A DNA stretch of 36,651 nt from Bacteroidales bacterium (GCA_003451785.1 DMJL01000026.1:1-36651); one strand, 5' to 3'. Positions 14,916 through 35,903 are shown, counted from the stretch's first letter. The notes: generated by a model from the sequence alone, not told the origin. Translations and numbers: made by a program.

Positions 14916-14940
14916 ATTTAAAAATGGAATTTTTAAAATT

Positions 14941-14948
14941 CAAAAATA
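14941..14948 (-). promoter_or_regulatory. Candidate Bacteroidota -7 promoter element (TAttTTTG) upstream of galM
   Basis: The plus strand reads caaaaata, which is TATTTTTG on the minus strand and matches TAnnTTTG, 26 nt upstream of the galM ATG. No well-spaced -33 TTTG was found. Confidence 0.3.
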
Positions 14949-15123
14949 CATTCAATTGTTTACATTGCCGACCAACAAACTTTGGGGCTTGTTCAAAATA
15001 GTGCCAAAAGCTGCCAAATTTAGGGGTAATTTGACCCATTCCCCGAAATCGCCGACTCCGGTAGGATAAAGCTCAATTGCTTCCAACTTCACAAATTGCA
15101 AACAACCATCAAAACATAGCTAT

Positions 15124-16407: not shown

Positions 16408-16495
16408 AACCTAAATATTGTTTAAAAATTCATAAAATAATCCAATTTCGAACTGTGCCTTTTGCAAGTAAAACTGCAATCCAACAAAGGGGCTG

Positions 16496-18835
16496 CTATT
16501 CAACTTGCAAAGTGTAGATTGCTTCTTGCAAACCTTCGCCTTGGGCTTGTAAAGTAATTGTTCCGCCGCTACGCCCTATTCGCAGCAATACCGAAGCAAT
16601 ACCTGCCACAGCATTGGGCATATTGCCGCCAATAATTTCGGCATCGCCATCAACCAGAAATTCCACCGTGTTTGCGACCCCGAATACCGGATTTCCATCG
16701 GCATCGAGTATATGCGCATACACAAACAAGACATCGTTTGCCCATTTTTGAGGCGGCATGCCACTGTAATCAATTTCAAGGGTTAATTTGGCTGGCACTC
16801 CCGGAGTAGTTACCGAGTGGGTGGCTACCTCCTGCCCATTAATAAAACCTTTTGCTGTGATAGTTCCCGCTTTTGTGCTATTTACTGCAAATTCGAATGG
16901 CGGGTGCAACAGATTTTTAGAAAAGCTGGTGATGGTTGGCTTTTGGCGACCTTTAGAAACGCCATCCACAAAGAGTTCTACTTCGTCGGCATTGGAAAAA
17001 ACCCTTACCCCTCTCGACACACCAGGTTGCCAATGTGAGGCAATAAACAACACTGGTTTGGAGAATGGATTATCTTGCGAAAAGGTGCGTTGGCTTTTGT
17101 AAAACCACCAAGTGAATTTGGGCAGTCTGAATATATCCATTACACCTGAATGTACATGGTTGTGTCCCATGCCTCGATTGTAGTCGAACATCACCCAGAA
17201 GGCATCGGCAAAGGCATGGGTAGCGCGATTGTCGTTGTGTGCTTCCTGAATATTGAATGCTTGTTGCAAAAGCCTCTTTTCGCCGGCATCTCTGGCCTGA
17301 CGGCTATTTCGCTCGTAGGGTAGCAGGTTGCGCCATTCGTGCTGGGTCAATCCCGCATTTTGGGCATAATATTCCCAATCGCCATATTCGCTTACAAACA
17401 AGGGCAACTCCGGAAAAAGACCGTGCCTATGTTGGCGGGCTTCTAAGTAGATATCATACGGATGCCTTACCCAACCTGCAGTATAGCTGCCGGGATAAGG
17501 AAACTCCTCACGACCAATGGCATGGGCTTCTTCGGTAAACCAAACGGGCATATCCGTCTCATTGAGCGACAATTCCCAAGCTAGCACCGAAGCATGATTG
17601 CGGTCTCTGCGAATCAACTGCCTGCATTGCTCAAGTGCAAGTTGCGCAAATTTCTCATCTTCGCCAAAATACTGCCATCCCATAATGGCATTCAACACAA
17701 AAATCCCAAGTTCGTCGCAGGCATGCATAAATGCAGGCGACATAGGATAGTGCGATGCTCTCACTAAGTCGAACCCAGCATGTTTTATTTTATACGCATC
17801 GCGAAACTGGGCTGCGTCGCTCATGGCATATCCCACAAATGGATATTCTTGGTGCCTGTTTACGCCGCGCAGCACTATCTGCTCGCCATTGAGCCACATA
17901 CCTTCGTTGGTAATCCTTATCTCGCGAAGCCCAACCCTTGTTGCATATACATCCGAAAGCCTTCCATCGGCATATAGGCGGGTTTCAAGATTGTACAGAT
18001 TCGGATGGTTTGGAGACCAAAGTAGGGGGTTGGGCAGCACATGGTTTTGCACTATTTCGGCAGCATTGCCTGCTTCAAGCTCAAGTCGGTCAGACCTTAG
18101 CGTGGCAACCAAAACGCCTTCTCTATCAACCAGGCGATGTTCTACCCTAATAGTGGAGTTTTGCTCTGATGCATTTCGCACATGGGTTTTAATTTCGAAA
18201 GCAGCACTATCGGCATTGGCCGAAAGGTTGGCGAAAAACACGCCACCGCCTGCAACCACATTGGCGTAGTTGGGATGGGTGATATGCACCGGATTCTTGG
18301 CAATGAGCCAAGCGTTGCGATAGATGCCGCCAAACATATTGAAATCGAGAATTTCCAATGGCTTGGGGCCTGTTATGGGATTGTCGCGGTTGTCGAGTCT
18401 TACAAGAATGGTGTTTAGCTCATCAAAACGGGCTAATGGGGTAATGTTTACCAAAAATGGCAGCCAGCCGTTCATATTCGTAATCATCTTGGTATCGTTT
18501 ACCCAAACCTCGGCAACATTCATTGCGGCTTCAAACTTTATAAAAAGCTCCTTGCCCCTATGTTCTTCCTTTAGGCCAAATTCTTTCTTGTAAAAAGAAA
18601 TACCTTGCCATTGGTCAATGATTACCAGTGGCTCGATATGGGCTGTGTGGGGCAGGTCAACAGCTTCCCATTGGGCATCCGATGGGGGCAAATCGGGAGT
18701 ACCTTCGGCTCTGTAAAAAAGCCAATCGTGATTGAAGTTCTCGGGTTCTAGTACAGAAAGGTCAACCCGCCTACAAGAAAGCCAGCTCACCGAAAGACCA
18801 ATTGCTAATAGGGCGACAATGGTTTTGTTGTTCAT
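16496..18835 (-). CDS. Glycoside hydrolase family 2 protein (beta-galactosidase-like), secreted
   Basis: N-terminal signal/lipoprotein-like sequence (LSVSWLSC), NRHQEYPFVGYA, RASHYP, and WELSLNE (acid/base NE). The length and domain order are typical of GH2. Confidence 0.85.
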   Translation of the reverse strand: MNNKTIVALLAIGLSVSWLSCRRVDLSVLEPENFNHDWLFYRAEGTPDLPPSDAQWEAVDLPHTAHIEPLVIIDQWQGISFYKKEFGLKEEHRGKELFIKFEAAMNVAEVWVNDTKMITNMNGWLPFLVNITPLARFDELNTILVRLDNRDNPITGPKPLEILDFNMFGGIYRNAWLIAKNPVHITHPNYANVVAGGGVFFANLSANADSAAFEIKTHVRNASEQNSTIRVEHRLVDREGVLVATLRSDRLELEAGNAAEIVQNHVLPNPLLWSPNHPNLYNLETRLYADGRLSDVYATRVGLREIRITNEGMWLNGEQIVLRGVNRHQEYPFVGYAMSDAAQFRDAYKIKHAGFDLVRASHYPMSPAFMHACDELGIFVLNAIMGWQYFGEDEKFAQLALEQCRQLIRRDRNHASVLAWELSLNETDMPVWFTEEAHAIGREEFPYPGSYTAGWVRHPYDIYLEARQHRHGLFPELPLFVSEYGDWEYYAQNAGLTQHEWRNLLPYERNSRQARDAGEKRLLQQAFNIQEAHNDNRATHAFADAFWVMFDYNRGMGHNHVHSGVMDIFRLPKFTWWFYKSQRTFSQDNPFSKPVLFIASHWQPGVSRGVRVFSNADEVELFVDGVSKGRQKPTITSFSKNLLHPPFEFAVNSTKAGTITAKGFINGQEVATHSVTTPGVPAKLTLEIDYSGMPPQKWANDVLFVYAHILDADGNPVFGVANTVEFLVDGDAEIIGGNMPNAVAGIASVLLRIGRSGGTITLQAQGEGLQEAIYTLQVE

Positions 18836-18976
18836 AGCAACATTATTTGGTTTAGTAAATATACCACAATCAGCATTGTAAGACCTTATGGACAGTTCGA
18901 TGGTTTATTGCAAAGTGGCGAACGATTGTGATGATGAATTTTCGTAATAACAGCGCATACAATCCATTTTGGTATA

Positions 18977-21415
18977 TTAACCTTTCAGAAATCCATACTT
19001 GTAAATTCTCGGTTCAATCTTCATCTCAATTTTTCGCAACTTCTCCCGCAAGTTGATAATTAATTGCATGTAAATTTTATCATCGCTTTTGGTATTCATC
19101 TTGCCTTTATCGTTTCTCCCCTGAAAATGCATCCGGATATCATACAACGATGCATTTACATTGCAATTTGGCTGTTTGTGGTAGTATTTCCAAAGCCCAC
19201 ACCCTGCAGCAAAAACTTCGGTAGCTTCTGATGAGAAAACCAAGGGCGTTTCATAATGAACCTGTGGCTCAAGTAAAATGGAAAAAATATTCGGCGTGCT
19301 TTTATTGGGCTTTATCTTTCCTTTAATAAACCGGCTCATAAAGTTGCTTTGAAACCTTTCTCGCGCATTTACATCTTGTTCTGTGAATGGGATCCAGTGG
19401 TTGATGCCATATTCTGATTTTATACTGTTGCTAAATAGGGTATAAGCCAAGCAGTCGTTTTGAAATTCCAAATCGGTCTCCCATTTGCTATTAGGAAAAA
19501 GAAATTGGTCTCTATCGTTTAGCCAAGTAGCTTGAATGCTGTGACGAACTGTAAAATAAATTCCAACTTCAATTAAATTTTTATCAGTAATCCAGGTGCC
19601 CCTTGGGTGTGGCAATTGACTCTTATCGTTAATAATAAAGATCAAATTCGTGTTTTGAAAATCATTTCCTTTACAAGAAATAAAGCCAATATTTTTTTCA
19701 TTTTGGCGATTTCGAGTTGAAATTAACCAATCATTTATTGATTTTGAGTTTGAATAGGATGAGAAATTTTTAGTGAGAATCAGACTCCCATGCTCATTAT
19801 AAACATCTGAGCAACTTTCCTCAAACTTTTCCATTTTACCTGTATTCCAGATAAAAAATCCAATTGGAAACTTCCCTTTTACATTATCAAAGGTGTCGGC
19901 AGGGACGATGAACATTTTTTCCAGTTTGGCTTGAAAAAATTTTCGAAATTTTTCAAAATTAGGTGCTTGCAGAATTTTCAACTTTGAAAATTCTGCAAGC
20001 ACTACGCCTGGAATTTCGCTATAAATTCTTGCAAAAAACTGGGCAAAAAGCTCTCTTCCAGCAATTCCAATTTTAGGTTGGTAGTTTCTGTAAATTTTTG
20101 TGGTAACAGCAACATCGGTTTTATTTACCTTTTTTCCAGAAACGGTTCCAGTACTCGCAGCTTCAGCATACGGTGGATTAATATACACCACCAACTTCTT
20201 CCGCTTTTCGGGGTCATAAATTATGTCCTTTAGTGTTTTGGGCAATTTGTTGAAATCGTCGTTCAAAAAATCAAATTGGAAAACATGGTCTTCAAGCAAG
20301 TTTGCACCATTTTTTATGCGATCGCGCATTATTTCAACATCTTGTTGGTCTAATGTTGAAGCCCAAATATGGTATTTGTTGGTAAGCCCGTTTAGCAAGT
20401 TGCCAGTGCCCGCAGCACAATCCCAAATAAAATACTCGTCCTGCCAGTCGTCCCCCAAAACATCTGCCAAATACTTTTGGGAAAGTTCTACCCAGATTTG
20501 CGGCGTAAAAAAGCTGCCCTTTCTTTCTCTAACATCTTGTGGCACAAGCAAATCCCTTCGCTCTACAATATAATCCCAATACCCTTCCTTGGGTGGTCGT
20601 TCATACTTGTTCCAAAACTGTGTATGAGCTAATTGCTTGTCGTTGAACTCGGTTCTTTTACTACTAAACATACCGGCCTCGTCCACCTTGCGATCCAGTT
20701 CGTAATGGTCGCTCCTAAGCAACACAAAGAGCTTCTCCTTAAGTGTAGTGTTTTCATGAGAAAGCATATCGGCAAGATAAAAGTCGCCGTCAATTATTCC
20801 GCTCTTCTTTGCAATTTCCCATTTAACAGCAATAGTTGGCTTCACAGTTTGATGCCATTTGTTGTAAATGACAATGAAATTATTCTTGTCTATTCGGTTC
20901 TTTGTAAGACCGAATTTGCCAACAACAAAATTGCTCTTTATGAATCTCCGCAGTTCTTTGTCGTCTTTTTCGTACTCGAAGAGCAGCGTTTTTTGGTCTA
21001 AAATTGCTTTTACTTTTTCATGGACACTCCTGAACTCCTTAGTTTCATAATCAGAAGGTGCAACATTCCAATTGAAATCATTCTGATAAAAAACATCATG
21101 AATGTCGCTATAAGGGATGAACGCAATTTTTTCTCCATCGAATGCCCCGAGAAAACGGGGAGGCAAATACTTATCAAATGTGCGGGCTTTTCCAATGGTA
21201 AGTATAAGCTGAACAAGGGAGTTGTAAATGTTTGACGCACCTTTCTTTGCTTCTGCCCATAGGAGAGATTCTTGGTCGGCTAACTCCTTAGTGCTTTGGT
21301 GTATAGCCACGCAAAAATCAACATTACCCATAATCTTAGAACAATCGAAAATCCAAAAATAGTCGTGAGCTACTTTGTTTTTCAATTCTTCTTCTCTAAT
21401 GTTGGCGTATTTCAT
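18977..21415 (-). CDS. Single-polypeptide N6-adenine DNA methyltransferase with large N- and C-terminal extensions; type IIG-like restriction-modification candidate
   Basis: GSFFTP motif X (aa 300-305), WDCAAGTGNLL motif I (aa 331-341), and NPPY motif IV (aa 413-416, nt 20168-20179). The N-terminal VDF(33)...LLWAEAKKG(E55-x-K57) resembles the D...ExK nuclease motif of MmeI-type enzymes. The ~380-aa C-terminal region could be a TRD. Strongly A/T-rich (16 G+C in the 60 nt at 19681-19740). Confidence 0.7.
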   Translation of the reverse strand: MKYANIREEELKNKVAHDYFWIFDCSKIMGNVDFCVAIHQSTKELADQESLLWAEAKKGASNIYNSLVQLILTIGKARTFDKYLPPRFLGAFDGEKIAFIPYSDIHDVFYQNDFNWNVAPSDYETKEFRSVHEKVKAILDQKTLLFEYEKDDKELRRFIKSNFVVGKFGLTKNRIDKNNFIVIYNKWHQTVKPTIAVKWEIAKKSGIIDGDFYLADMLSHENTTLKEKLFVLLRSDHYELDRKVDEAGMFSSKRTEFNDKQLAHTQFWNKYERPPKEGYWDYIVERRDLLVPQDVRERKGSFFTPQIWVELSQKYLADVLGDDWQDEYFIWDCAAGTGNLLNGLTNKYHIWASTLDQQDVEIMRDRIKNGANLLEDHVFQFDFLNDDFNKLPKTLKDIIYDPEKRKKLVVYINPPYAEAASTGTVSGKKVNKTDVAVTTKIYRNYQPKIGIAGRELFAQFFARIYSEIPGVVLAEFSKLKILQAPNFEKFRKFFQAKLEKMFIVPADTFDNVKGKFPIGFFIWNTGKMEKFEESCSDVYNEHGSLILTKNFSSYSNSKSINDWLISTRNRQNEKNIGFISCKGNDFQNTNLIFIINDKSQLPHPRGTWITDKNLIEVGIYFTVRHSIQATWLNDRDQFLFPNSKWETDLEFQNDCLAYTLFSNSIKSEYGINHWIPFTEQDVNARERFQSNFMSRFIKGKIKPNKSTPNIFSILLEPQVHYETPLVFSSEATEVFAAGCGLWKYYHKQPNCNVNASLYDIRMHFQGRNDKGKMNTKSDDKIYMQLIINLREKLRKIEMKIEPRIYKYGFLKG

Positions 21416-21534
21416 TTTAGCTTGCTTTCTAAATCAAAATGCAACAATCTCCCTTGATCGGGTAATCTACCTCACTTCAAATTTGGGTTGTTTATACTAA
21501 GCGATTTTATCCTGTATGTAAAACCATCATTTTT

Positions 21535-24105
21535 TTACTCAAGCCAAATTTGCTCTACCTCCAGCGATACCCTTTGGCTTGCGCCCTCCCGGATGGAAAA
21601 CTGGATGGTTTGCAGTTTGTTCCAATCAAAGGGGGCATCCTCCTTTGCTTCGTGAAAAAATGACATAAACACCGGATAGGGCCTTGGTATGATTGCGTAT
21701 TTTCCTTGCGAAAAGGCACTGAGTGGAATGCGGTATTGCTTTTTGCCCGGCTCAATGCTTATCTGTGCAGTGAATGCCACTCCATTGTGGTCTATCAATC
21801 CCACTTCAACAGGTTGAGCAGTTTGGGTTAGGGTGCGGGCGTTTAGCACAAGGTATCGCTTTGCGGCAAACTCGTTTTGGCGACCTTTCAGTTCGTCGGC
21901 AAAGTAGTATTTGAAAGTGTAATCGCCAATGGAATCGCCTGCATGAAATGCGTTTCTGAGTTGGTCAAGGTCAATTCTTAGAACTGTATTGCCTTCGGGT
22001 GTAGGTAACGGACGCACATCGCGATACCACCTGCGCATGGTTTCGGACCAGCTGGTGGCGGCATCCCACAACGCCAAATTAGCATTTTGCGGAACAACTC
22101 TCAGGCTAAATGCATCGGTATGTGCAAAATCCCACTGACCGGGTCTGCCTTGGTGTGCGCCGGGGAAGGTTATATTTTGACCGCCTTCGTTCACCGTAAC
22201 CTGGTAAGAAAACAATCCCTTCTCAACAACATCGGCAGGAATAGTAACCGACCATCTAACTCCCCTCTCGAACACAGCATCAAAGTTTCTCCATTGCCTT
22301 GCCGACATTATTAGGACTTCTACTTCTTCGGGTTTTGTGAGCGAGAACACATCAAACTTCAAAGTTAGCAGGCCGCCTTCGCTAACCTCCTCCGGCGAAT
22401 GGTTTGTCAGGAATATTCCGTTGAGATTGGTAGCAGGTGCCACAAACTCATTGAGACGGATATTCTGAAACTGCATGGTGGGAGTAATATGCTTAGTAGC
22501 TCCTTGGCGTCTTATCAAGTAAGTACCGGGCTTTATGGAGAAAGCGTTGCTGGTGACTTGTGGAACGAATGGATTGCCTTCGTTCAGGGGTTGAATGGTG
22601 AATCCGCTGCCCAAATTGGGTATTTTCAGGGTCATTTTCCTTTTATTGTGTACAACTGCAGCTTTTTGGAGTCCGGGACTGGCTCTCGAATAGGGGTCTC
22701 TGATGAGAAAAGCATCGGGCATTACCTCGAGTCGCCAAATGCCGTCTGCAACCTTGTCGAGAAAATAGGCACCGAGACCATCGTACTCCACCAAAGGTGA
22801 AGAGCCAAAACCGGCAATTTCGGTAAGCAGGGCAGGATTGGCAGGAGATGATGTAGTGTTGTTGGTATAAATGAACCTTTCGTTGGTAACCATTTCGGCA
22901 AGGTTTTCCTGGTGGCTCAATCGGAAATTGCCAAACCTAAGGTTGTCGGGATATATACCCAAATTGGCATACATGGGCACCTGCCTAAAGATTTCACCGG
23001 CAATTTTCAGACTCAAAGCGCGTTGGGGGCTGTAAGCCAAATTCATAAAATGCGTTCCGTAGTTGGTGTTGTATGGGGCATTGAACATGGCATCGTAAGC
23101 AAAATAAGTTCCCACCTGCATTCCCGCTTGTCTGAAGGTACGCGCCATTGCCGGAATGAGATAGCTGCCGTGGGTGTCGGATGCGTCGAATTCATAAACA
23201 AGTTTTGCCCTTTGCCTAAACACCGGATTGTTGGCAAACGGAATATGATAATAATCTACCTGTGGCAGAAAATTGCCCTGCCGTGCATGGTTCGCTACCA
23301 GCCCAGTGGGATACCACTGAAAGGTGCCACCCTGCATTTCTGTGGTTAAGAAAGCCTCCAACTGAAAAATATTATGACTCCAATTATAGAAAATGGGCTT
23401 TTGCAATCCTGTGCGACGCATGGAGCGCGACATCCGGTTGATAAAGTCGGTTACTTCGGCTATAGTGCCAAAATGATGTGGCTCATTGGAAACCTCAAAG
23501 GCAATGATGCTTGGCTCGTCTTTGTAGGCCACGCCAGTATATTGGTTCACATGGTTCAAGAATTGGTACAAAAAGTTTTCCTGCGCGCGGATGCAATCTT
23601 CGATTACAAGACAACCCGCTTTGCTCCATCGCTGCGAAAAACCGGGGGTGGCTTCATCAGGCTCGGGCCAGCCGTTGCCCCAAAATGCTATGGGCGTTAT
23701 CACAAAGCGCATACCTCGCTTTTTCATCTCGTAGATAGCAAAATCCAATAACCGCAGATGCTCATTGTTAATCAGATTTCCCAAAGTGTCGGATATTTCG
23801 GTATCCCACACATGCACACGATATAGGTCGAGACCCAGCCGTGCAAAATGGTAAACATCTTGCCGAATAGCATCCTCATGCGAAACACCAAGACGATTGG
23901 CCATTCTAAATTCATGCGCAAAGGGCAGTGTGTAATTTACTCCAAAACCAAAGACTTCTTGGTTGTTTTGGCGAAACCGCATCACGCCATTGCGGTCAAC
24001 CACCACAAGTCCATCGTTTCTTCTGGGAGTGGCGTGAAGCCCCACACTAAGCAATAGCAAGAGGGCTGTTAAATATGTGAGCAAAGATTTTGACTGAAAT
24101 TTCAT
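21535..24105 (-). CDS. Secreted clan GH-A (GH5-like) glycoside hydrolase with C-terminal accessory domains
   Basis: Signal peptide (LLLLLSVGLHA). TIM-barrel-type segment with FEVSNEPHH (NEP acid/base motif). 856 aa. The exact GH family was not determined. Confidence 0.6.
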   Translation of the reverse strand: MKFQSKSLLTYLTALLLLLSVGLHATPRRNDGLVVVDRNGVMRFRQNNQEVFGFGVNYTLPFAHEFRMANRLGVSHEDAIRQDVYHFARLGLDLYRVHVWDTEISDTLGNLINNEHLRLLDFAIYEMKKRGMRFVITPIAFWGNGWPEPDEATPGFSQRWSKAGCLVIEDCIRAQENFLYQFLNHVNQYTGVAYKDEPSIIAFEVSNEPHHFGTIAEVTDFINRMSRSMRRTGLQKPIFYNWSHNIFQLEAFLTTEMQGGTFQWYPTGLVANHARQGNFLPQVDYYHIPFANNPVFRQRAKLVYEFDASDTHGSYLIPAMARTFRQAGMQVGTYFAYDAMFNAPYNTNYGTHFMNLAYSPQRALSLKIAGEIFRQVPMYANLGIYPDNLRFGNFRLSHQENLAEMVTNERFIYTNNTTSSPANPALLTEIAGFGSSPLVEYDGLGAYFLDKVADGIWRLEVMPDAFLIRDPYSRASPGLQKAAVVHNKRKMTLKIPNLGSGFTIQPLNEGNPFVPQVTSNAFSIKPGTYLIRRQGATKHITPTMQFQNIRLNEFVAPATNLNGIFLTNHSPEEVSEGGLLTLKFDVFSLTKPEEVEVLIMSARQWRNFDAVFERGVRWSVTIPADVVEKGLFSYQVTVNEGGQNITFPGAHQGRPGQWDFAHTDAFSLRVVPQNANLALWDAATSWSETMRRWYRDVRPLPTPEGNTVLRIDLDQLRNAFHAGDSIGDYTFKYYFADELKGRQNEFAAKRYLVLNARTLTQTAQPVEVGLIDHNGVAFTAQISIEPGKKQYRIPLSAFSQGKYAIIPRPYPVFMSFFHEAKEDAPFDWNKLQTIQFSIREGASQRVSLEVEQIWLE

Positions 24106-24546
24106 AAATGAAAGAGATTATTTGTGAAATTATAAAAACCGACAAACACAACCACTTGTATGTCAGCCATGTGAAATGAAAAACAACAAATGATTTGAAG
24201 CAAAAATAAAATCCTAAATATCGGATTTTTTACCATGCACGCAACGAACTGCAAGTTGAGAAAAACACAAAATTAAATGAGCTAACAGCAATGAAACTCA
24301 CAAAGGTGCAAAAACTACAGGCATTGCACCGCAAAGCAACAAGCAGTTTGACAAAATTTTTAACCGAAAGTTATAAGGATTGGATACATTTGTGTGGAAA
24401 ATACATGACTGTTTGAGCAACCGCAATAAATTCGTTGGTCAGGTCAAAACACAATAAAATCAAGCAATTATCAACCATCAACTTAATCTGAAGCATTTGT
24501 AAAAAAACCGGTAGCATACAAAACAAAAAAAGAGTTTTTGTTGCAA

Positions 24547-25497
24547 ATGCCTTTAAAAAAATTTCTTGTGAATTGTATGGAAAAGAAAGTCAGCAACCTA
24601 TCGGTTTTTCGCAAAAATTTGGTTTACAACACACTGGGGGAGTTAGACTCCAACCAGCCTGAGTTTTTGGTATCTGAAAGCCTTTATGAGTTACCCCATG
24701 GAAAGCTCGTAAAAGAAACCCACTGGACCGAAAACGGGCAAGTGGAACAGCAAACGGTTTACAGCTATACCCCACAAGGATTTTTGTTGCGAGAGGAGCT
24801 GGTGGATAGCGACGGCTCAACATTAGAATGCCGAAGTTTTGAGCCTGATAGCAACAACCTTATCCAAATCGAAAGATTGCATTATGCAGATGGATCTGCC
24901 GACAGAATATTGTATGTGAGGGATAGCAACCAAAAACTTGTTCGCAAGGAGTTTTATGCCGATGAAAACGACCTTGAAGTAATTGAAGAGTTTGCGTATG
25001 ATGGTGAAAACCTTTTAAGACAAACAAAAAGGGACAATAACGACGACCTTATAGCAGAATCGCATTACACATATAACGATATGGGGTTGATATCAGAATT
25101 GACTGTTAACGACTTGGAAGAAGACATTAATTATCAAAAGCATTATGCATACGATGAGAATGGTTTTTTGCTACAAGTTACCACCTTCAATGAAGAAGGC
25201 GACCCTGTGGAACGCATAACCCACGAAAATAATGAAGCCGGCAAGCCGGTAAAAATTACAGACGAAAATAAGAGACAGAAAAACACTACAACCCTTGAAT
25301 ATAATGAATTTGGGGAAGTGATATTTCAAGCAGAGACCGACCGCCACGGTCAATTGGTAAAACAATTAGAGAAATCGTTTGACGACAACAACCTATTGAA
25401 AGAAACCCAAGTATTGGTGCGAGATTTTCAAAGGGGATTTTCGCGCAGCTATGTATTAAGGCATCAATATGTCTTTTTTGATAACCAAACGGATTAA
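24547..25497 (+). CDS. YD/RHS-like repeat protein, small, no obvious signal peptide
   Basis: Recurrent Y-x-Y-D/N-x-x-G-like units (YSYTPQGFL, FAYDGENLL, YTYNDMGLI, YAYDENGFL, EYNEFGEV). The start is uncertain: TTG at 24538, ATG at 24547, or ATG at 24577. Confidence 0.4.
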   Translation: MPLKKFLVNCMEKKVSNLSVFRKNLVYNTLGELDSNQPEFLVSESLYELPHGKLVKETHWTENGQVEQQTVYSYTPQGFLLREELVDSDGSTLECRSFEPDSNNLIQIERLHYADGSADRILYVRDSNQKLVRKEFYADENDLEVIEEFAYDGENLLRQTKRDNNDDLIAESHYTYNDMGLISELTVNDLEEDINYQKHYAYDENGFLLQVTTFNEEGDPVERITHENNEAGKPVKITDENKRQKNTTTLEYNEFGEVIFQAETDRHGQLVKQLEKSFDDNNLLKETQVLVRDFQRGFSRSYVLRHQYVFFDNQTD

Positions 25498-25499
25498 TC

Positions 25500-26090
25500 A
25501 TGGAAACGGCATTTTTTGATTCATTCTGGTGGACTTGGGTGGTTCTGCCATTACTCATTTTCTGTTCTCGCATTTTAGATCAGAGTATTGGAACCCTGCG
25601 TCTAATTTTTGTATCAAAGGGTTATAAAAACATTGGACCTTTTCTGGGGTTTTTTGAGGTAATCATTTGGTTGTTGGCCGTTACACAGGTGCTGCAACAT
25701 CTCACCAACCCTATGTCGTACATAGCTTACGGCGGGGGTTTTGCCATGGGAAATTATATAGGGATGCGCATTGAAGAAAGGATAAGCATTGGCACTGTCC
25801 TTATCCGAATTATACCCAAAGATGATGCAAACGATATGATCGGCAGATTGCGCCAAGAGGGTTTTGGAGTAACAGCTACACCGGCGGAAGGTGCTATGGG
25901 CCCGGTGAAAATAATCTTTACCATCATTAAGCGAAAAAGCATTCCCACAGCCATAAACATCATCAATCAATACAATCCGCAGGCATTTTATACCATCGAA
26001 GAGATAAAATCCGTGAAGGATGGATACTTTGGAGTGCAGCAAAAAAGGGAAGTTTTCAATTGGCGGTTGTTTAGCAAGAAAACAAAGTAA
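25500..26090 (+). CDS. UPF0316 / DUF2179-domain membrane protein
   Basis: 196 aa. The N-terminal TM segments, with ILDQSIGTLRLIFVSKG, and the C-terminal soluble domain are typical of the UPF0316 family. It starts 2 nt after the preceding stop. Confidence 0.6.
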   Translation: METAFFDSFWWTWVVLPLLIFCSRILDQSIGTLRLIFVSKGYKNIGPFLGFFEVIIWLLAVTQVLQHLTNPMSYIAYGGGFAMGNYIGMRIEERISIGTVLIRIIPKDDANDMIGRLRQEGFGVTATPAEGAMGPVKIIFTIIKRKSIPTAINIINQYNPQAFYTIEEIKSVKDGYFGVQQKREVFNWRLFSKKTK

Positions 26091-26155: not shown

Positions 26156-27331
26156 CTAATTCCATCTTCCTGGAATAGCTCTATTACAAAATCTGCACCG
26201 ACCGTTTCGTATTTGATTCGAAATTAGCGTAATTCCCGCCCTGTGCATAATCCTTTCTCCGCAACCCGGGCAGAAGGTGCTATCGTAGCGATGACCCGGC
26301 ACATTTCCAATGGTAACGAAGTTTATGCCTGCATCTCTTGCTATGCGGTGGGCTGCTTCTAAGGTTCTTATGGGTGTGGCGGGAAGGTTTGTTAGCCTAT
26401 ATGCTGGCATAAAACGATTGAAGTGCAGAGGCACATCCGGTCCAAGGTTTTCGAGAATCCACAGGCTCATAGCTCTTATAGTGGCGGGATTGTCGTTTAG
26501 GGTGGGAATCACTAAGTTAATGATTTCGAGCCATACTCCTTCTTCTTGAATAATTTTCAGGGTTTCCAGCACGGGCTGCAGCGATCCTCCGCTTATCTGG
26601 CGATAAAACTTATCGTCGAATGCTTTCAAATCAACCCGCACAGCATCTATATGCCTAAGCAATGCCCTAAGTGGCTCAGGATTGATGAAACCGTTGGTTA
26701 CAAGGGTTGTTTTTATGCCTTCCTTTTGCGCCAGTTTTGCAATATCGTAAACATACTCATAAAAAACCGTAGGCTCGGTATAGGTGAACGATAGAGAATT
26801 GAATCCAGCTCTTCTCACGCCATCAACAATTTGCCTTGGAGAGCGTACAAGATTTCTTACATCTTCTACACTGCTCTGGGAAATAGACCAATTCTGACAA
26901 TTCTGGCAATGAAAGTTGCATCCTACAGTTGCAACCGTCTGGCGCCAATGCCCCGGAAAGAAATGATGAAATGGAGCCTTTTCAATTGGCCCGGAGCTTA
27001 CGGTAACCGGTCTGCCATATACAAGGGTATAAAGCACCCCGCGTCGGTTTTCTCGCACCCGGCACAATCCCCGACTTCCATCGGGAATCACGCAATAATG
27101 AGGGCACAATTCGCACATTACCCTGTTGTTGGTCAGCTCACGCCAGTATTTTGCGGGGCGTGGGCCAGCCTTCATCCCTGCTTCCGATCTGTTTGCTGCA
27201 ACACTCATTGTATTCAAAGGCTCATCAGGTGACAACCATCGGGATGGCAAATCTTTCCAATATGGATAATACACAAATGCAGCCGATACAATTATGGATG
27301 TGAGAATCAGAAAAAAAATGGTCTTTCTCAT
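26156..27331 (-). CDS. AmmeMemoRadiSam-type (AmrS-like) radical SAM enzyme, paralog 1, with N-terminal signal/anchor
   Basis: N-terminal Cys cluster CELCPHYC..GLC, PIEKAPF, radical SAM CNFHCQNC (Cx3Cx2C), and a C-terminal CPGC...CRFC ribbon. The hydrophobic N-terminus is MRKTIFFLILTSIIVSAAFV. Confidence 0.8.
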   Translation of the reverse strand: MRKTIFFLILTSIIVSAAFVYYPYWKDLPSRWLSPDEPLNTMSVAANRSEAGMKAGPRPAKYWRELTNNRVMCELCPHYCVIPDGSRGLCRVRENRRGVLYTLVYGRPVTVSSGPIEKAPFHHFFPGHWRQTVATVGCNFHCQNCQNWSISQSSVEDVRNLVRSPRQIVDGVRRAGFNSLSFTYTEPTVFYEYVYDIAKLAQKEGIKTTLVTNGFINPEPLRALLRHIDAVRVDLKAFDDKFYRQISGGSLQPVLETLKIIQEEGVWLEIINLVIPTLNDNPATIRAMSLWILENLGPDVPLHFNRFMPAYRLTNLPATPIRTLEAAHRIARDAGINFVTIGNVPGHRYDSTFCPGCGERIMHRAGITLISNQIRNGRCRFCNRAIPGRWN

Positions 27332-27364
27332 TTGAATGGTTTCCTAATTTTTTTAATGACATAT

Positions 27365-28534
27365 CTATTCCCAAATTCCGGGCACAGGTCTGCCCGAAAA
27401 AGGCGACCTTCCATTTTCAATTCTATTGTAAACCACATTGAAATGCACACGATGAATCAACCGTTTGCCGGTATGAGGACAAAAAGTGGAATTGTAGCGA
27501 TGTCCGGGTACATTTCCAATGGTAACGAAGTTGAGTCCTGCTTCTCTGGCAATGCGGTGTGCCGCTTCGAGAGTTCTAATCGGAGTAGCGGGCAGGTGTG
27601 TCAATCTGTACGATGGATGAAACCGTGTGAAGGCAAGGGGCACATTGGGACCGAGATTTTCTGCAATCCACTCGCTCATGGCCCTGATCTGCCGCAGGCA
27701 ATCATTCACCGTTGGTATAATCAGATTGGTTATTTCGAGCCACGCCCCTTCCTCCTTGATTATTTGCAGAGATTGCAACACAGTGTAGAGATTTCCACCA
27801 AAGTAGGTTTGATAGGCTTGGTTGCAAAAACCTTTTAAATCGACCACAGCTTGGTCTATGCGGTTGAGTAATGCTCGGAGTGGCATCTCTGCAATAGCAC
27901 CATTGGTGTGAAACTGCATTCGCAACCCCTGCTGGCGAGCCAAAACAGCTACATCGTAAAGAAACTCGTAGAAAATTGTCGGCTCGTTGATTGACCCTGT
28001 AATGGTTCGTGCACCTTGCTGCAATGCATAATCCACTACCTGAGAAGCTGAAAGCCTTCTTGCCCGTACCTCCTCCGGCCTTCGCTGGGTGATATGCCAG
28101 TTGTGGCACTGCATACAGCGAAAATTACAACCGGCTGTGGCCAAAGCAAGCACTCTGGTACCGGGCAAGGCGTGTTTCATGCCGTCTTTCTCAATAGGCG
28201 CAATGGTAGTAGAAGCCAACTGCCCGTAAACAAGGGAATACAACCGACCATCGCGGTTTTCCCTTACCCGGCAAATTCCGCGTCTTCTGGGGGCGATTAT
28301 GCAATAGTGCGTGCAAAGAGTACACTTTACCCTGTTATTATCAAGTGATTCCCAAAAGCGGGCTTCAACAGCCCCTCCGGAAACAAAGGTTGGCGGAGGC
28401 AAACTGGAATGCAGTGCAGGAACCAAGTTTTCTTTTGCCCGAAAAAAGGAAGGTATGTAGGCAGCAGCAATTGCTGCCAATAGGATGATTGCTACAAGTA
28501 TTTTAAAATACCTTTTTTCCATAGCTTTTGGCAT
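27365..28534 (-). CDS. AmmeMemoRadiSam-type radical SAM enzyme, paralog 2, with N-terminal signal/anchor and a degenerate C-terminal Cys ribbon
   Basis: CTLCTHYC..GIC, PIEKDG, and CNFRCMQC. The C-terminus reads CPHTG...SPFSG, so three of the four ribbon cysteines are missing. N-terminus KRYFKILVAIILLAAIAAAY. It shares an identical 23-nt stretch with paralog 1 (27510-27532 = 26301-26323). Confidence 0.8.
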   Translation of the reverse strand: MPKAMEKRYFKILVAIILLAAIAAAYIPSFFRAKENLVPALHSSLPPPTFVSGGAVEARFWESLDNNRVKCTLCTHYCIIAPRRRGICRVRENRDGRLYSLVYGQLASTTIAPIEKDGMKHALPGTRVLALATAGCNFRCMQCHNWHITQRRPEEVRARRLSASQVVDYALQQGARTITGSINEPTIFYEFLYDVAVLARQQGLRMQFHTNGAIAEMPLRALLNRIDQAVVDLKGFCNQAYQTYFGGNLYTVLQSLQIIKEEGAWLEITNLIIPTVNDCLRQIRAMSEWIAENLGPNVPLAFTRFHPSYRLTHLPATPIRTLEAAHRIAREAGLNFVTIGNVPGHRYNSTFCPHTGKRLIHRVHFNVVYNRIENGRSPFSGRPVPGIWE

Positions 28535-28635
28535 AAAGTCGTGAAAAAAACCGCAGTTTGACGCATGACCGCCCCAACCCTATTACCTCCTTCCCTTGCC
28601 CACAAAAGAAAAAGGGCAACCTAAGATGCAACTGC

Positions 28636-28667
28636 TAAATGTACAAAATTTTTCAGAAAATCACAAA
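28636..28667 (-). promoter_or_regulatory. Candidate internal Bacteroidota-type promoter (-33 TTTG, 20-nt spacer, -7 TAcaTTTA) ahead of radical SAM paralogs 2 and 1
   Basis: Minus strand: TTTG (28667-28664), a 20-nt spacer, then TACATTTA (28643-28636). It lies in the 181-nt gap between the membrane-protein stop and the paralog 2 start. Confidence 0.3.
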
Positions 28668-28715
28668 GTATTTCCGAACACTAAAAGAAGTGTAAAACAG
28701 CCTTTTGCAGGATTA

Positions 28716-31037
28716 TTAACCCAGAACCTTGAATATAGATTTGCGTTTGGAATAAGCGAACACAACTAGCAATCCTATACTGGCTAACTTGAGTAATGCC
28801 ACTACTATGCTGGTCTGCACCAGACCCATAACCGGCAGCAAGGCTACGCCTCCCAGCAGACCACCAACCCAGCCGCCTAATAAATCGGCACCAAACAGCT
28901 TGCCTGCCGTGTGGCTCACTCCATCGCGAGTGCTCAGAATTATATGACTTGCAAGCGGAAACTGCGCACCTAGCAGGAAACCGGCCAGTGCCGACAACAA
29001 AAAAAACATCCCATTCACAAGGTAGGAATTGGCCAACTCGAAAATGCCCGGAACCACTACCATAAAAACCAATGGCATTAGCACAGCAAACAAAAGCATC
29101 ATCAATTCCAAACTCAAGAAAAGCCGTATGCCGTTTTTAATAGAGTTTAACTTAGCCGTGATTACCATACCTCCAGCTCCAATTCCCATCATGAATGCTG
29201 TAACTAAAAGCCCGATATGGTGAAAAACATATCCGTGAATGATCTGAAAGGTATAAATTATGGAAAGCTCGAACAGCATCCCTGCAAAACCCGATGTTGC
29301 AATGGCAAATGTAATTGCGTTGTTAGATGCTTTGGAACGATTTTTTAGCCCAAAGAACAGCAAAACCATCATAACAACAAAAACGGGAATGGCCAAATGC
29401 TTTAAGCGAAGATTCTCTACCCAGGCGAACACTTTGGCAGCACCAGGCGAAAACAATGCATTCCAGTGTGCAATGCTGTAGAACATAGCCCGTGGTCTAA
29501 AGTCGTGGTTTGGCTGGTTGCTTGCTCCCTGCAAAGACTCAAAAAACCAATCGGTCCAGCGAGTATCCAACTTAAAGTCAATATAAAAAGGGTTAATTAA
29601 TCCCGTTTGCAAATTTCTTTCATAAAATCTATGGCTCAATGCCTCCAAAGAAATTAATGAATCGAGATTTGAATCGGAGGCCAGAAACAGGTTGATGTCG
29701 CCTGGAATGACACGCACATTTTGGAAAACAGCATTAAGACTTGCAAGAACCGACGCGTTGATATTTTTTAGTTCCCGACTCAGATAAGTCAACGACCCCG
29801 GCAGCGACAAGGCTAAGATTCCGCCTTGGCGTAGCTGTTGCTCGGCTTGAGCAAAAAACTCTTTGGTAAAAAGTCTGTTGGTTTGAAGATTTACCGGACT
29901 TGTTGCACCTACCAGAATCACATCGTAATACTCTGATGATTTTTTCACATATAGGCGCCCGTCTAAATATTCCACATTCACACGGGGGTCGTTAAGTTCA
30001 GCTTCCGATATTGGAGTGGGAAATTTTTTAACCACATCCAAAAGCATAGGGTCGAGTTCGGTATAAACCACCTTACTTACCGGATGTTTCAATATCTCGT
30101 GGATCATGCCACCGGCACCCCCACTCAGTATCAATACTGTATTTGGATTGGGATGCGACAACAAGCTTAGATGCACAAATTCCTCAAGGAAAAGCAAGTC
30201 GGGATCGGGAGAAGTAATGATGGGCTTACCGTCGGCAAAAAAAGTATTTTGCCCATTGCTGGTTGTTACGGTAATGTTTCCATGAAAGGAATTGCGGTAA
30301 TAAACCACATTTTGACCCGGCCACTGCTGCTGAACCGTGTGCTGATGAATTGCTTTTGAGCCACTACCTGCCAAAAAAAATATTGATGCTAAAATGCCCA
30401 ATGCAGAAAAACCTGCCAGTAGTTTTGTAGAAAATGACCTTTTTAGATTGTCTAACATTAAAACCAGCCCCACCAGCAGATTCAAAAACATTAGCAATAG
30501 GGCTATTTGAAATGCGTTGAAAAACGGGATAAAAAGGTAGGTAAACACCACTGCGCCTACAATGGTGCCAATGGTTTCAAAAATATAGGTATTGCCTATG
30601 GGTGACGCCTTGTGTGTGGCGACAAGGCTTTTGGCGTGCAACCTACATGAAACCGAAAACAATGCGCCGTGCATGAAGCTCAAGGGTGCAAGCAACAACA
30701 GGGATGAAATAAAGATTGGTGCAAGACCGATTCCTTCGCCGGGCAAAACACCCATGATTTCTTTTAGCAGGCGAGTGGCATAAATGATGAAGGGAAAGGA
30801 TAATGAAAAAAGCAGGTTGATGCCTACAAAAACCCCCACGCTATTGTTGCTGCGGTCTATCCATTTGCCGGCAACAAATGCACCCAATGCTTCTAAAATA
30901 AGCCAGTTGGCAAGAATAATAGCAATTACCAATTCGGTGCCGGCAAATACGATGAGAAATTCTCTTAACAAAAGAATTTGAACTACAATGCCGCTAAATC
31001 CGACTGCCAGAATGGCTAACAAAACCCTATTCTTCAT
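28716..31037 (-). CDS. Polytopic membrane protein with central spermidine-synthase-like (SpeE-fold) domain, fused transporter/SpeE type
   Basis: There are about 7 hydrophobic segments at the N-terminus (aa 1-225) and about 6 at the C-terminus (aa ~540-760). The central domain has VLILSGGAGGMIHEILKH, YTELDPMLLDVVKKF, and YDVILVGATSP aligned to the SpeE GGGDG / EID..V...KK / DSSDP motifs. Confidence 0.75.
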   Translation of the reverse strand: MKNRVLLAILAVGFSGIVVQILLLREFLIVFAGTELVIAIILANWLILEALGAFVAGKWIDRSNNSVGVFVGINLLFSLSFPFIIYATRLLKEIMGVLPGEGIGLAPIFISSLLLLAPLSFMHGALFSVSCRLHAKSLVATHKASPIGNTYIFETIGTIVGAVVFTYLFIPFFNAFQIALLLMFLNLLVGLVLMLDNLKRSFSTKLLAGFSALGILASIFFLAGSGSKAIHQHTVQQQWPGQNVVYYRNSFHGNITVTTSNGQNTFFADGKPIITSPDPDLLFLEEFVHLSLLSHPNPNTVLILSGGAGGMIHEILKHPVSKVVYTELDPMLLDVVKKFPTPISEAELNDPRVNVEYLDGRLYVKKSSEYYDVILVGATSPVNLQTNRLFTKEFFAQAEQQLRQGGILALSLPGSLTYLSRELKNINASVLASLNAVFQNVRVIPGDINLFLASDSNLDSLISLEALSHRFYERNLQTGLINPFYIDFKLDTRWTDWFFESLQGASNQPNHDFRPRAMFYSIAHWNALFSPGAAKVFAWVENLRLKHLAIPVFVVMMVLLFFGLKNRSKASNNAITFAIATSGFAGMLFELSIIYTFQIIHGYVFHHIGLLVTAFMMGIGAGGMVITAKLNSIKNGIRLFLSLELMMLLFAVLMPLVFMVVVPGIFELANSYLVNGMFFLLSALAGFLLGAQFPLASHIILSTRDGVSHTAGKLFGADLLGGWVGGLLGGVALLPVMGLVQTSIVVALLKLASIGLLVVFAYSKRKSIFKVLG

Positions 31038-31046
31038 GCAATTAAA

Positions 31047-32198
31047 TTAACTCCATATTCCCGGTATCGCAGTCCTGCAGCTCGGACAACGCCCATTGAC
31101 CAAATTGTTTTCCAAGACCCGGAAATGTGTACGATGGATAACCCTATGGTTGCATGAAGGGCAAAAAGTAGAATTATATCTGTGTCCGGGCACATTTCCA
31201 ATAGTAACAAAATCAAGACCTGCGTCTTTGGCAATGCGGTGTGCCCGCTCCAAAAGGTTGATGGGAGTCTTTGGGATTTGCGTTAACCTATAAGTTGGGG
31301 TGAATCGAGAAAAATGCAGGGGTGTACTTTTGCCAAGATTGTCTCTTATCCATATACACATTCGCCTTACATCTTCAACATTATCGTTGAGTGTTGGGAT
31401 TTTTAGGTTTACAATTTCGAGCCATCTGCCGGCTGCTTTAATCTCCCTAAGCGTTTGCAACACAGGAGCTAAACGAGCAGTGAGAATAGTGCGATAAAAC
31501 TCCTCGGTAAAGCCTTTCAAATCAATAGTAACAGCATCCGTATATTTCAACAACTCCCTAGCCGGCTCGGGATTCATTGCGCCATTGGAGTGCCATAAGA
31601 TTTTCAAACCCCGTTGCTTGGCTATCACCGCAGTATCGTAGGCATACTCATAAAAACTTGTAGGCTCGTTGTAGGTAAATGAAATGGTGCGGAGTCTTCT
31701 ACTTTGTGCCAAGTCAACAAGTGCGGCAGGCGGAAGGTCATATACCCTGTTCATATCTTCGATACCCCTTTGCGACAAGTGCCAATTGTGGCAAAATCTG
31801 CAACGAAAGTTGCACCCAGCGGTACCCACACAAAGAATTTCCGAACCCGGAAACATGTGCAATGCAGGCTCTTTTTCTATGGGTTCTACATGCACCGCCG
31901 AGGGTCTTCCATGTACCAATAGAAACAACCTCCCTCCTTGATTTTCTTTGTTAAAGCAACGCCCTCTTGCACCATCATTTATGCGGCAGTTGAGAAAACA
32001 CAACTCGCAATGCACCTGGTTGTTGGGCAACCTTCTATAAAACATGGCTTCCCTGAGTGGGGTTCGCGGTCGCCTTGCTTCTGCTTCTTTACTCATAAAC
32101 ATGGATAGGGACGATATGGCTCCAATCCCTGCAACATACTTGCAACCGACACCCAAAAAATGGCGCCTTGTGGTGTTTTTCAAAAATGGTGAATCCAT
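31047..32198 (-). CDS. AmmeMemoRadiSam-type radical SAM enzyme, paralog 3, with twin-arginine (Tat) signal motif
   Basis: TRRHFLGVG followed by a hydrophobic stretch and AEA (aa 10-41). CELCFLNC..GRC, PIEKEP, CNFRCRFC, and a C-terminal CPSC...CPSC ribbon. It ends 9 nt before the membrane-protein ATG. Confidence 0.8.
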   Translation of the reverse strand: MDSPFLKNTTRRHFLGVGCKYVAGIGAISSLSMFMSKEAEARRPRTPLREAMFYRRLPNNQVHCELCFLNCRINDGARGRCFNKENQGGRLFLLVHGRPSAVHVEPIEKEPALHMFPGSEILCVGTAGCNFRCRFCHNWHLSQRGIEDMNRVYDLPPAALVDLAQSRRLRTISFTYNEPTSFYEYAYDTAVIAKQRGLKILWHSNGAMNPEPARELLKYTDAVTIDLKGFTEEFYRTILTARLAPVLQTLREIKAAGRWLEIVNLKIPTLNDNVEDVRRMCIWIRDNLGKSTPLHFSRFTPTYRLTQIPKTPINLLERAHRIAKDAGLDFVTIGNVPGHRYNSTFCPSCNHRVIHRTHFRVLENNLVNGRCPSCRTAIPGIWS

Positions 32199-35279: not shown

Positions 35280-35903
35280 ATGTGTTACTTTAAAGACCAC
35301 AAAACAATGACCAAAAAGGATATAAAAACATTTTTCAAAGCAGTTTTGGACGGAGACACTAATAAAGTTTCTGAACTCTTGGAAAAGAATAAAGAATACT
35401 TAACTATTTGTAATGTTGCACCACCGAAAAAAGTTGATGGACAATCAGGGCTTCAAGTCGCCTTTAAGACAGGAAACTTTGAAGTTGCCAAACTTCTAAT
35501 CGAAAAAGGAGCAAATATAAACTTTATGGAAACATCTGAAATAAATGAATGGACTGCTCCTGTATTACACGACTGTATAAGAGCGACAATTTTCAATTCA
35601 TACACGCTTCAAAGGGACACAAAACAGTTTGACAAAGCTTTTAACTTACTTCAATTAATGTTGAGTAAGGGAGCAAACCCCAAATCAATTGACTCGTATG
35701 GAAACAATTGTTTACACAGGGCATTAATGGACGCAAGACAAATGTTTGACAATCCAAGCACAGACTTAACCAACAACATTTTGATACAGCAGCTTCAAAG
35801 TGTATTTACGCAACTAATCAATGCAGGTGCTGACATTAAACATGGCAGCGATAACAGAGATAGTGCTGAAGAATTGTATTTGAATTTTAAGTTAGACAAA
35901 TAG
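35280..35903 (+). CDS. Ankyrin-repeat protein
   Basis: Canonical ANK units (GQSGLQVAFKTGNFEVAKLLIEKGANINF; GNNCLHRALMDA...LINAGADIKHG). There is an alternative ATG at 35307. A/T-rich codon usage. Confidence 0.75.
   Translation: MCYFKDHKTMTKKDIKTFFKAVLDGDTNKVSELLEKNKEYLTICNVAPPKKVDGQSGLQVAFKTGNFEVAKLLIEKGANINFMETSEINEWTAPVLHDCIRATIFNSYTLQRDTKQFDKAFNLLQLMLSKGANPKSIDSYGNNCLHRALMDARQMFDNPSTDLTNNILIQQLQSVFTQLINAGADIKHGSDNRDSAEELYLNFKLDK

Follow-up and report, generated by a model that had tools for sequence, protein, structure and literature searches.

Radical SAM enzymes with predicted export signals are linked to a membrane protein carrying a remodeled spermidine synthase fold in a Bacteroidales bacterium and other anaerobes

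Radical S-adenosylmethionine (SAM) enzymes constitute one of the largest enzyme superfamilies. To our knowledge, they are treated as strictly cytoplasmic, because SAM, iron-sulfur (Fe-S) assembly, and low-potential reductants are located in this compartment. In the AmmeMemoRadiSam system, the radical SAM enzyme AmrS is accompanied by AmrA (AMMECR1) and AmrB (Memo); we know of no function assigned to the canonical system, and its name was mentioned only in passing in the open-access literature found. Here, a window of 36,651 nucleotides from a Bacteroidales bacterium (GCA_003451785.1 DMJL01000026.1:1-36651), i.e., the whole stretch of DNA under study, was analyzed. Positions 26,156 to 32,198 harbor three genes encoding AmrS-type paralogs, named A, B, and C, and one gene encoding a polytopic membrane protein, named Mem, with a central domain of the spermidine synthase (SpeE) fold. 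We consider it rather probable that this locus is an expanded copy of a widespread, undescribed two-component module, namely an extracytoplasmic radical SAM system in which Mem supplies or docks SAM. Location and linkage of the components are well supported in silico, the chemistry we infer; together, they suggest that radical SAM chemistry may also occur outside the cytoplasm. No description of the module or of a radical SAM enzyme exported by the twin-arginine translocation (Tat) system or otherwise was found in the open-access literature. All parts are members of known superfamilies; as a system, the module is unlike any described kind with respect to the dedicated partner, the compartment predicted for it, and the two recruited radical SAM lineages.

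With AmmeMemoRadiSam the enzymes A, B, and C share the family hidden Markov model (HMM), the N-terminal four-cysteine motif, the CX3CX2C motif, and the tail GNVPGH...CxxC...CxxC, B being devoid of the C-terminal cysteine pairs. In contrast to that system, they occur in several copies with no AMMECR1 or Memo partner nearby, and their partner is a membrane protein combining major facilitator superfamily (MFS) and SpeE folds. Furthermore, export signals or anchors are present on the window enzymes, whereas three canonical amrS genes start directly at the core and are signal-less. In annotated plasmid records, the canonical gene is located directly after amrB in Ideonella and Segatella; the third one is solitary. 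Identity between Mem-linked enzymes and canonical AmrS amounts to 38-45%, as compared to 51-66% within the Mem-linked set.

The pyruvate formate lyase (PFL) activating enzyme and other glycyl-radical activases resemble A, B, and C as small radical SAM enzymes dedicated to one protein partner; they provide the next-best HMM matches and also the closest solved structure (PFL-AE; 3c8f/3cb8), the sole solved relative found. It was reached by profile search alone (E 6e-13), as a single-sequence search of the Protein Data Bank with C, or with a member of the second partner lineage described below (type-2), gave no match. Unlike these activases, the window enzymes have extra cysteine-rich N- and C-terminal modules and are predicted to be extracytoplasmic, no glycyl-radical enzyme is encoded nearby, and the activase models scored far below their cut-offs (70.7 vs. 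231.75 bits for PFLA and 73 vs. 250.2 for YjjW).

Mem resembles the membrane-anchored aminopropyltransferases described by PRK03612 and NF037959 in that a polytopic region at the N-terminus precedes a SpeE fold, and PRK03612 aligned to its residues 5-410 with 180 bits. It differs by a second half of seven helices, by the absence of both the catalytic aspartate and the aspartate selecting decarboxylated SAM (dcSAM), and by the linkage to radical SAM enzymes predicted to be exported. Tat-exported Fe-S proteins (Rieske proteins, hydrogenase small subunits, and ferredoxins of the NrfC/DmsB type) likewise possess an RR signal before the cluster domain; cleaved soluble and uncleaved N-terminally anchored forms exist, in parallel to C as compared to A and B. 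The known ones, however, are electron carriers, and none is a radical SAM enzyme needing a nucleoside co-substrate across the membrane. The range of Tat-inserted Fe-S membrane proteins was described in PMC10924467. In the anti-phage system HXS, an effector matured by a radical SAM enzyme is described as a gatekeeper in the periplasm (PMC13128918), so that here, too, a radical SAM enzyme is tied to a periplasmic function. We assume the HXS maturase to be cytoplasmic, whereas the enzymes of the window bear export signals themselves and are accompanied by no effector gene.

The initial annotation of the window had described four tightly packed, co-directional genes encoding three AmrS-type paralogs and a membrane protein, in DNA of host-like composition and without AMMECR1, Memo, or a glycyl-radical enzyme. 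All of this was confirmed. Open reading frames (ORFs) are present on the minus strand at the positions given in Table 1, separated by 33 nt (A-B), 181 nt (B-Mem), and 9 nt (Mem-C). The paralogs exceeded the curated NCBIfam cut-off of TIGR04337 (AmmeMemoRadiSam system radical SAM enzyme; 220 bits), and the motifs CxxCxxxC...C, PIEK, CNF(H/R)Cx2C (corresponding to CX3CX2C), and the block LPATPI...GNVPGHRY.STFCP were aligned in all three. Their cores are 55% (A/B), 53% (A/C), and 51% (B/C) identical. No better-characterized family claimed the enzymes in HMM searches; the viperin model NF038283 scored 34.8 against a cut-off of 180, and PADLOC pVip models gave 20-39 bits covering the generic core only. 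The GC content of the module (0.42-0.48) is similar to that of the flanking DNA. Pfam searches detected no AMMECR1 or Memo among the substantial window ORFs (at least 110 aa, shadow ORFs excluded) or in 4.4 kb of the source contig past the window, and no glycyl-radical enzyme among the window ORFs. The start of B is probably located four codons downstream of that of the longest ORF, i.e., at the second ATG (position 28522, MEKRYFKIL, 385 aa), which was chosen by the gene caller and the public annotation and agrees with the N-termini of orthologs; the longest ORF adds MPKA (28522-28534). The gap between B and Mem would then be 193 nt. Scans for sigma-70 promoters, whose consensus may not apply to Bacteroidota, and for terminators did not exceed the expectation from shuffled sequence (16 vs. 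12±3.7 and 8 vs. 8.8, respectively), and are uninformative with respect to operon structure.

Table 1. Positions of the module genes and of their predicted domains and signals, counted from the first letter of the window.
Feature	Position	Strand	Description
Radical SAM paralog A	26156-27331	minus	391 aa; secondary copy; TIGR04337 353 bits
Radical SAM paralog B	27365-28534	minus	389 aa; secondary copy; TIGR04337 298.4 bits
Membrane protein (Mem)	28716-31037	minus	773 aa; 14 helices; defining component of the module
Radical SAM paralog C	31047-32198	minus	383 aa; primary partner, directly upstream of the Mem gene; TIGR04337 331.8 bits
Mem N-terminal membrane half	30324-31037	minus	residues 1-238; repeat of transmembrane helices (TM) 1-6, plus TM7
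Mem SpeE-fold domain	29415-30311	minus	residues 243-541; predicted extracytoplasmic, catalytically remodeled
Mem C-terminal membrane half	28743-29405	minus	residues 545-765; TM8 plus repeat of TM9-14; MFS-like fold
Predicted Tat signal peptide of C	32076-32198	minus	residues 1-41, MDSPFLKNTTRRHFLGVGCKYVAGIGAISSLSMFMSKEAEA, then RRPR
Hydrophobic helix of A	27266-27322	minus	residues 4-22, after MRK; hydrophobicity score 2.13
Hydrophobic helix of B	28445-28501	minus	residues 12-30, strongly hydrophobic, after (MPKA)MEKRYFK

Species-representative genomes were scanned for related loci. Relatives of Mem were detected in 307 species genomes; 80 loci were analyzed, and linkage was counted on the 52 of them that are flanked by 1300 nt or more on both sides. 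A radical SAM gene on the same strand was found within 300 nt of the Mem gene in 44 of these 52 loci. In 27 of the linked loci, the partner is a type-2 enzyme located downstream; TIGR04337-like enzymes are encoded upstream in 14 loci, on both sides in two, and downstream in one. The type-2 partner reached 25-27 bits on TIGR04337 and passed no NCBIfam cut-off; it is unnamed and activase-like. On metagenome contigs of distant lineages, the Mem gene likewise adjoins one radical SAM gene, either upstream or downstream. No third conserved gene of at least 70 aa which could encode a substrate, a ferredoxin, or a transporter was detected near the 80 loci, the other clusters being shadow ORFs; the same applies to a precursor gene, and neither AMMECR1 nor Memo was conserved there. 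The linkage and the missing third gene thus indicate that the conserved unit consists of two genes, Mem and one predicted-exported, activase-like radical SAM enzyme of either lineage. Since the partner of Mem comes from a radical SAM family unlike AmrS in most lineages, it is Mem that defines the module, which is no AmmeMemoRadiSam variant. The initial annotation had proposed examining whether the four-gene arrangement is conserved: the complete set rSAM-Mem-rSAM-rSAM was found in the two closest relatives (83% and 70% identity), in another genomic context, and the pair of radical SAM and Mem genes across phyla, but the conserved unit comprises two genes and not four.

The modules are embedded in varied housekeeping surroundings. 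Carriers belong, e.g., to the Desulfobacterota, Anaerolineae, Cloacimonadota, Atribacterota, and Bacteroidales, and include the cultivated Desulfobulbus alkaliphilus and Desulfosudis oleivorans. Judged from taxon names, almost all hosts are presumably strict anaerobes, which fits an oxygen-labile enzyme outside the cell. Public annotations of the proteins are 'spermine synthase', 'polyamine aminopropyltransferase', 'fused MFS/spermidine synthase', 'pyruvate formate lyase activating enzyme', and 'AmmeMemoRadiSam system radical SAM enzyme'. One pair of Mem and a type-2 enzyme (locus L076) is located on a contig titled Candidatus Undinarchaeota archaeon, all other carriers being bacterial; the archaeal assignment may result from a binning error or from transfer. 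In L007 (10474-11637) and L008 (83%-identical relative), a gene encoding a protein of the beta-lactamase fold (AmpH/PBP4B-like, 387 aa) is inserted between Mem and B, at the site of the 181-nt gap of the window. Finally, in a single locus, L094 from a metagenome-assembled genome (MAG) of Atribacteria, a Fer4_5 polyferredoxin-type gene (6004-6525, 173 aa) directly follows an rSAM-Mem-rSAM module. We take it to belong to the NapH/MauN family; as a weak hint, it could provide an electron route to the outer face.

N-terminal export features, which the initial annotation did not mention, were found on all three enzymes of the window. The match to the TIGR04337 profile starts only at residues 52-60 (C: 52), leaving N-terminal extensions of 50-60 aa. 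That of C contains the sequence TRRHFLG (T-R-R-H-F-L motif), followed by 16 uncharged, mildly hydrophobic residues and an A-E-A (AxA) site; it looks like a textbook Tat signal, and orthologs of C have the motifs SRRNFL, SRRSFL, and SRRAFL. The N-termini of A and B display RK and KR, respectively, and no strict RR ahead of a strong helix; with these basic residues N-terminal to the helix, they resemble signal anchors. Partners of Mem with an intact N-terminal region were then counted under a strict criterion, RRx[FLIVM] followed by a hydrophobic stretch. Tat-like signals were present on 57 of 71 partners (35 type-2, 22 type-1) as compared to nine of 499 other ORFs (1.8%) of the same loci (Fisher p 4e-55). 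The remaining partners mostly have RK/KR variants or strong hydrophobic helices. Apparently, both lineages partnering Mem, type-1 and type-2, bear export signals although they are unrelated, and the signals of the type-1 C-clade finish in AxA-like sites. For one sub-class, the 120 closest relatives in the database were compared: the N-terminus is hydrophobic in 82 and seemingly short in four, and a strict RR is present in 25.

Two candidates for signal-less enzymes were rejected. P0144 (331 aa, annotated as AmmeMemoRadiSam enzyme), one of the four short relatives, seemed to be cytoplasmic, yet it belongs to an rSAM-Mem-rSAM module and its start is mis-called: an in-frame ATG 48 codons upstream adds a membrane anchor. 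The type-1 copy of L085, located 4.5 kb from the Mem gene, resembled a signal-less canonical AmrS, yet it is truncated by the contig end, and a 91%-identical relative comprises 427 aa. A looser regular expression for RR or lipobox motifs produced false positives through internal motifs and over-extended ORFs and was discarded in favor of the strict count. Directly after the hydrophobic (h-) region of the Tat signal, about ten type-2 enzymes (among them those of L031, L034, L038, L039, L057, L064, L078, L081, and L089) show a lipobox-like L-x-x-C, found with a noisy regular expression; this suggests that the type-2 partners of some lineages, several Chloroflexota among them, are Tat-exported lipoproteins.

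The Mem family comprises 1858 hits of about 765 aa, with 46-53% identity across KSB1, Cloacimonadota, WS2, Aerophobetes, Desulfobacterales, and Bacteroidales; a protein identical to Mem is on record from a Bacteroidales MAG. PF01564 covered residues 285-427 (99.6 bits), and Foldseek superposed the soluble domain on whole spermidine synthases (1uir, 3anx, and 3o4f; TM-score about 0.75, normalized to the target). In SpeE enzymes, a first aspartate selects dcSAM and a second one deprotonates the attacking amine. Comparison with SpeE of Bacillus subtilis revealed GGAGG instead of GGDGG and VGATSP instead of VDSTEP in Mem. Conservation was counted over 81 family sequences: position 308, corresponding to the dcSAM-selecting aspartate, is Ala in 77 and Val in four sequences; position 377, the catalytic aspartate of SpeE, is Gly in 80 and Ser in one; an aspartate was found at neither. 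A second acidic position, 380, is Glu or Asp in 48 sequences (about 60%) and Ser in the window protein. In contrast to the lost aspartates, E327, D329, and D359, which contact ribose and adenine, are present in 81 of 81 sequences each. Hence, judged from these residues, the domain is predicted to be a binder of a nucleoside ligand, with a conserved pocket of its own, and not a normal aminopropyltransferase or spermidine synthase; it should still bind an adenosyl ligand, plausibly SAM. All aminopropyltransferase equivalogs remained below their cut-offs (PRK03612, 180.2 vs. 472; PRK00811, 123.4 vs. 260; TIGR00417, 113.4 vs. 249.55). NF037959 was passed (50 vs. 40) but covers the SpeE part only.

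The AlphaFold2 (AF2) model of Mem (pLDDT 85, pTM 0.84) consists of seven helices, the soluble domain, and a further seven helices; the initial annotation had correctly recognized a central SpeE fold in a polytopic protein, its estimate of about 13 helices being replaced by 14. For 31 proteins, the lysine and arginine residues of short loops were counted using a 7+7 helix model which agrees with the AF2 model. On average, 21.8 such residues per protein are located on the side of both termini as compared to 3.7 on the opposite side. By the positive-inside rule, the SpeE-fold domain is therefore predicted to be extracytoplasmic.

Both membrane halves of Mem appear to be related to each other, since an hhalign comparison of TM1-6 with TM9-14 gave a probability of 93.9% (E 1.6e-7). 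The C-terminal half modeled alone (pLDDT 87.8) retrieved near-exclusively MFS transporters (FLVCR1/2, OxlT, GlpT, and SLC37) in Foldseek, with TM-scores of 0.55-0.61 normalized to the query. Pfam searches assigned no family, MFS models included, to either half even at E up to 5, so that the connection to MFS comes from the internal-repeat and fold searches only. According to the model, the predicted layout of Mem is an MFS-like 6+6 core (6+1/1+6) with two extra helices which carry the inserted domain across the membrane. Four polar residues within the membrane (R25, E26, Q598, and D718) do not vary among the 81 sequences, and a fifth, E154, is Glu in 78 and Asp in three of them; N44 of the N-terminal half is invariant or nearly so.

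A neighbor-joining tree was calculated from 333 core columns with 100 bootstraps, a type-2 root, and three canonical AmrS sequences. C was placed within a clade of upstream-of-Mem enzymes from many phyla (85-86% bootstrap). A is sister to B (74%); with their respective orthologs in two related MAGs (L007 and L009), both group at 100%. The initial annotation had suggested a phylogeny against canonical AmrS; the three canonical genes fell outside all Mem-linked enzymes, at a node support of 40%. Multi-copy enzyme sets occur in other lineages as well, with different gene orders. By this topology, C would be the ancestral partner and A and B products of a later duplication, so that the triplication appears to be a lineage-specific expansion, consisting of an old split of C from A/B followed by the A/B duplication, and not a recent tandem event. 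Four C-terminal cysteines are present in A and C; B retains C352 alone, and this loss is common to its orthologs, indicating that B is a maintained, reduced form. In B and its orthologs (L007 11795-12952; L009 10438-11592), STFCPHTG...NGRSPFSGRP replaces CPxC...CxxC within surrounding sequence that is nearly identical across the three genomes; a metal or cluster site has probably been lost.

Two independent lines, namely the charge-based topology of Mem and the signal peptides of the enzymes, assign both components to the outer side of the cytoplasmic membrane. Tat signals, anchors, and this outward topology strongly reinforce the proposal of the initial annotation that the radical SAM pathway is associated with the membrane or the envelope. 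Accepting them, Mem would expose its SpeE-fold domain to the exterior of this membrane. The enzymes would reach the same side via Tat in a folded and cluster-loaded state, C being cleaved and soluble, A and B possibly remaining N-terminally anchored in a Rieske-like manner. The MFS-like part of Mem may transport SAM or another substrate outward, and the SpeE-fold domain may capture SAM and dock the enzyme. The enzyme would then split SAM, and the resulting 5'-deoxyadenosyl radical would take hydrogen from an extracytoplasmic target, which may be the domain of Mem or an envelope component. As PFL activase acts on a protein and no third conserved gene was detected, the domain of Mem itself is, by analogy, a serious candidate for this target. 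The three paralogs might act on different sites or build a hetero-complex including the structurally reduced B. The complete picture, in which Mem exports SAM, its outward SpeE-derived domain feeds Tat-exported radical SAM enzymes modifying the envelope of strict anaerobes, and two enzyme lineages were recruited independently, we regard as possible but rather doubtful as a whole.

Several observations weigh against an extracytoplasmic module of this kind. Eight of the 52 loci have no same-strand radical SAM gene within 300 nt, although four of the eight have one nearby; Mem occurs alone in one lineage; some enzymes bearing signals are likewise encoded alone. In the tree, the Mem-linked enzymes were monophyletic at only 40% support, and MFS transporters were matched by Foldseek at weak E-values (0.04-0.3). 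Strongly hydrophobic N-termini that resemble Sec signals and are devoid of a strict RR pair are found on A, B, and many relatives; Sec exports unfolded proteins, and an Fe-S protein taking this route would be unable to gain its clusters. Signal and topology assignments are motif and charge heuristics, and SAM binding, SAM transport, and the target are steps that we infer. Furthermore, we know of no radical SAM enzyme working outside the cytoplasm, and of no periplasmic SAM pool or dedicated low-potential donor.

According to the main alternative, the enzymes are only tethered to the inner face of the membrane by their N-terminal sequences, and the SpeE domain is cytoplasmic and would receive a glycyl radical or another modification by means of cytoplasmic SAM and flavodoxin. 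SAM and reductant then need not be supplied outside the cell; PFL activase, to which the enzymes are closest and which acts on a protein, is in line with this alternative, as are the many paralogs with plain hydrophobic anchors and no RR signals, and Mem would be the obvious substrate candidate in the absence of a third conserved gene. However, the lysine and arginine bias (21.8 vs. 3.7) puts the SpeE domain outside, and every anchor is preceded by basic residues, which predicts an N-in/C-out orientation. Vestigial RR motifs are known from cytoplasmic proteins, e.g., NarG, which lack an h-region and AxA-like features; 80% of the Mem partners have full Tat signals including h-regions, and AxA-like sites follow in the type-1 C-clade. 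We therefore judge an inner-face location to be unlikely.

An ordinary AmmeMemoRadiSam system, with AMMECR1 and Memo elsewhere in the genome and Mem as a coincidental neighbor, is very improbable. A, B, and C pass TIGR04337, NCBI names their relatives likewise, and the partner search covered the window plus 4.4 kb only; yet adjacency to Mem is kept across phyla, 27 of 44 loci contain a partner without resemblance to AmrS, canonical genes are signal-less and in two of three cases located beside amrB, and canonical identity (38-45%) lies below that within the Mem-linked set (51-66%). Public annotation names, the whole SpeE fold, and position 380, acidic in about 60% of the sequences, might be taken to indicate a genuine membrane-bound, PRK03612-like aminopropyltransferase making spermidine or spermine, the radical SAM genes being unrelated in function. 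However, every equivalog cut-off was missed; of 81 sequences, 80 have Gly in place of the catalytic aspartate and all have Ala or Val in place of the dcSAM-selecting one; and the predicted location of the domain outside the cell would separate it from dcSAM. We give hardly any credence to this explanation. Least of all do we expect a cassette for the modification of a ribosomally synthesized peptide or for anti-phage defense. Both kinds of cassette include radical SAM enzymes, pVip models were hit weakly (20-39 bits), and with HXS (PMC13128918) a periplasm-acting effector matured by a radical SAM enzyme has been described. The pVip hits, however, concern the generic core and are ten-fold below the TIGR04337 scores; composition is host-like, genomic contexts are of varied housekeeping type, and no conserved precursor or effector gene was found among the ORFs of at least 70 aa surveyed across the loci.

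If the extracytoplasmic module proposed here exists, it would open a new compartment for radical SAM chemistry, implying SAM export and a periplasmic electron supply, and would provide a first clue to the function of some members of the large AmmeMemoRadiSam family. An envelope modification of a kind so far unknown would then occur in abundant sediment- and gut-associated anaerobes, and the cultivated carriers make the question directly testable. Additionally, a systematic annotation error would be flagged for proteins labeled spermine/spermidine synthase and AmrS.

Beyond the module, the window contains further genes. Directly downstream of it, on the opposite strand (24538-26090, plus), a small RHS/YD-repeat protein (319 aa) and then a DUF5698/DUF2179 membrane protein are encoded; an ankyrin-repeat protein (35280-35903) is located past a formate-tetrahydrofolate ligase gene. 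Genes for sugar use occupy positions 12608-24105 (minus), namely those of an MFS transporter, an aldose 1-epimerase, a galactokinase, and a GH2 glycosidase, followed by genes of two large proteins of 812 and 856 aa; neither has a Pfam match, and the source record gives one weak GH5-mannosidase hit only for the latter. An Eco57I/N6-type DNA methylase (523 aa) and an AccI-like restriction endonuclease (337 aa) are encoded at 9966-12550 (minus) with a shared start/stop junction. Both genes lie in the stretch of lowest GC content of the window (0.36-0.37 vs. about 0.43 overall) and hence probably represent an acquired type II restriction-modification unit.

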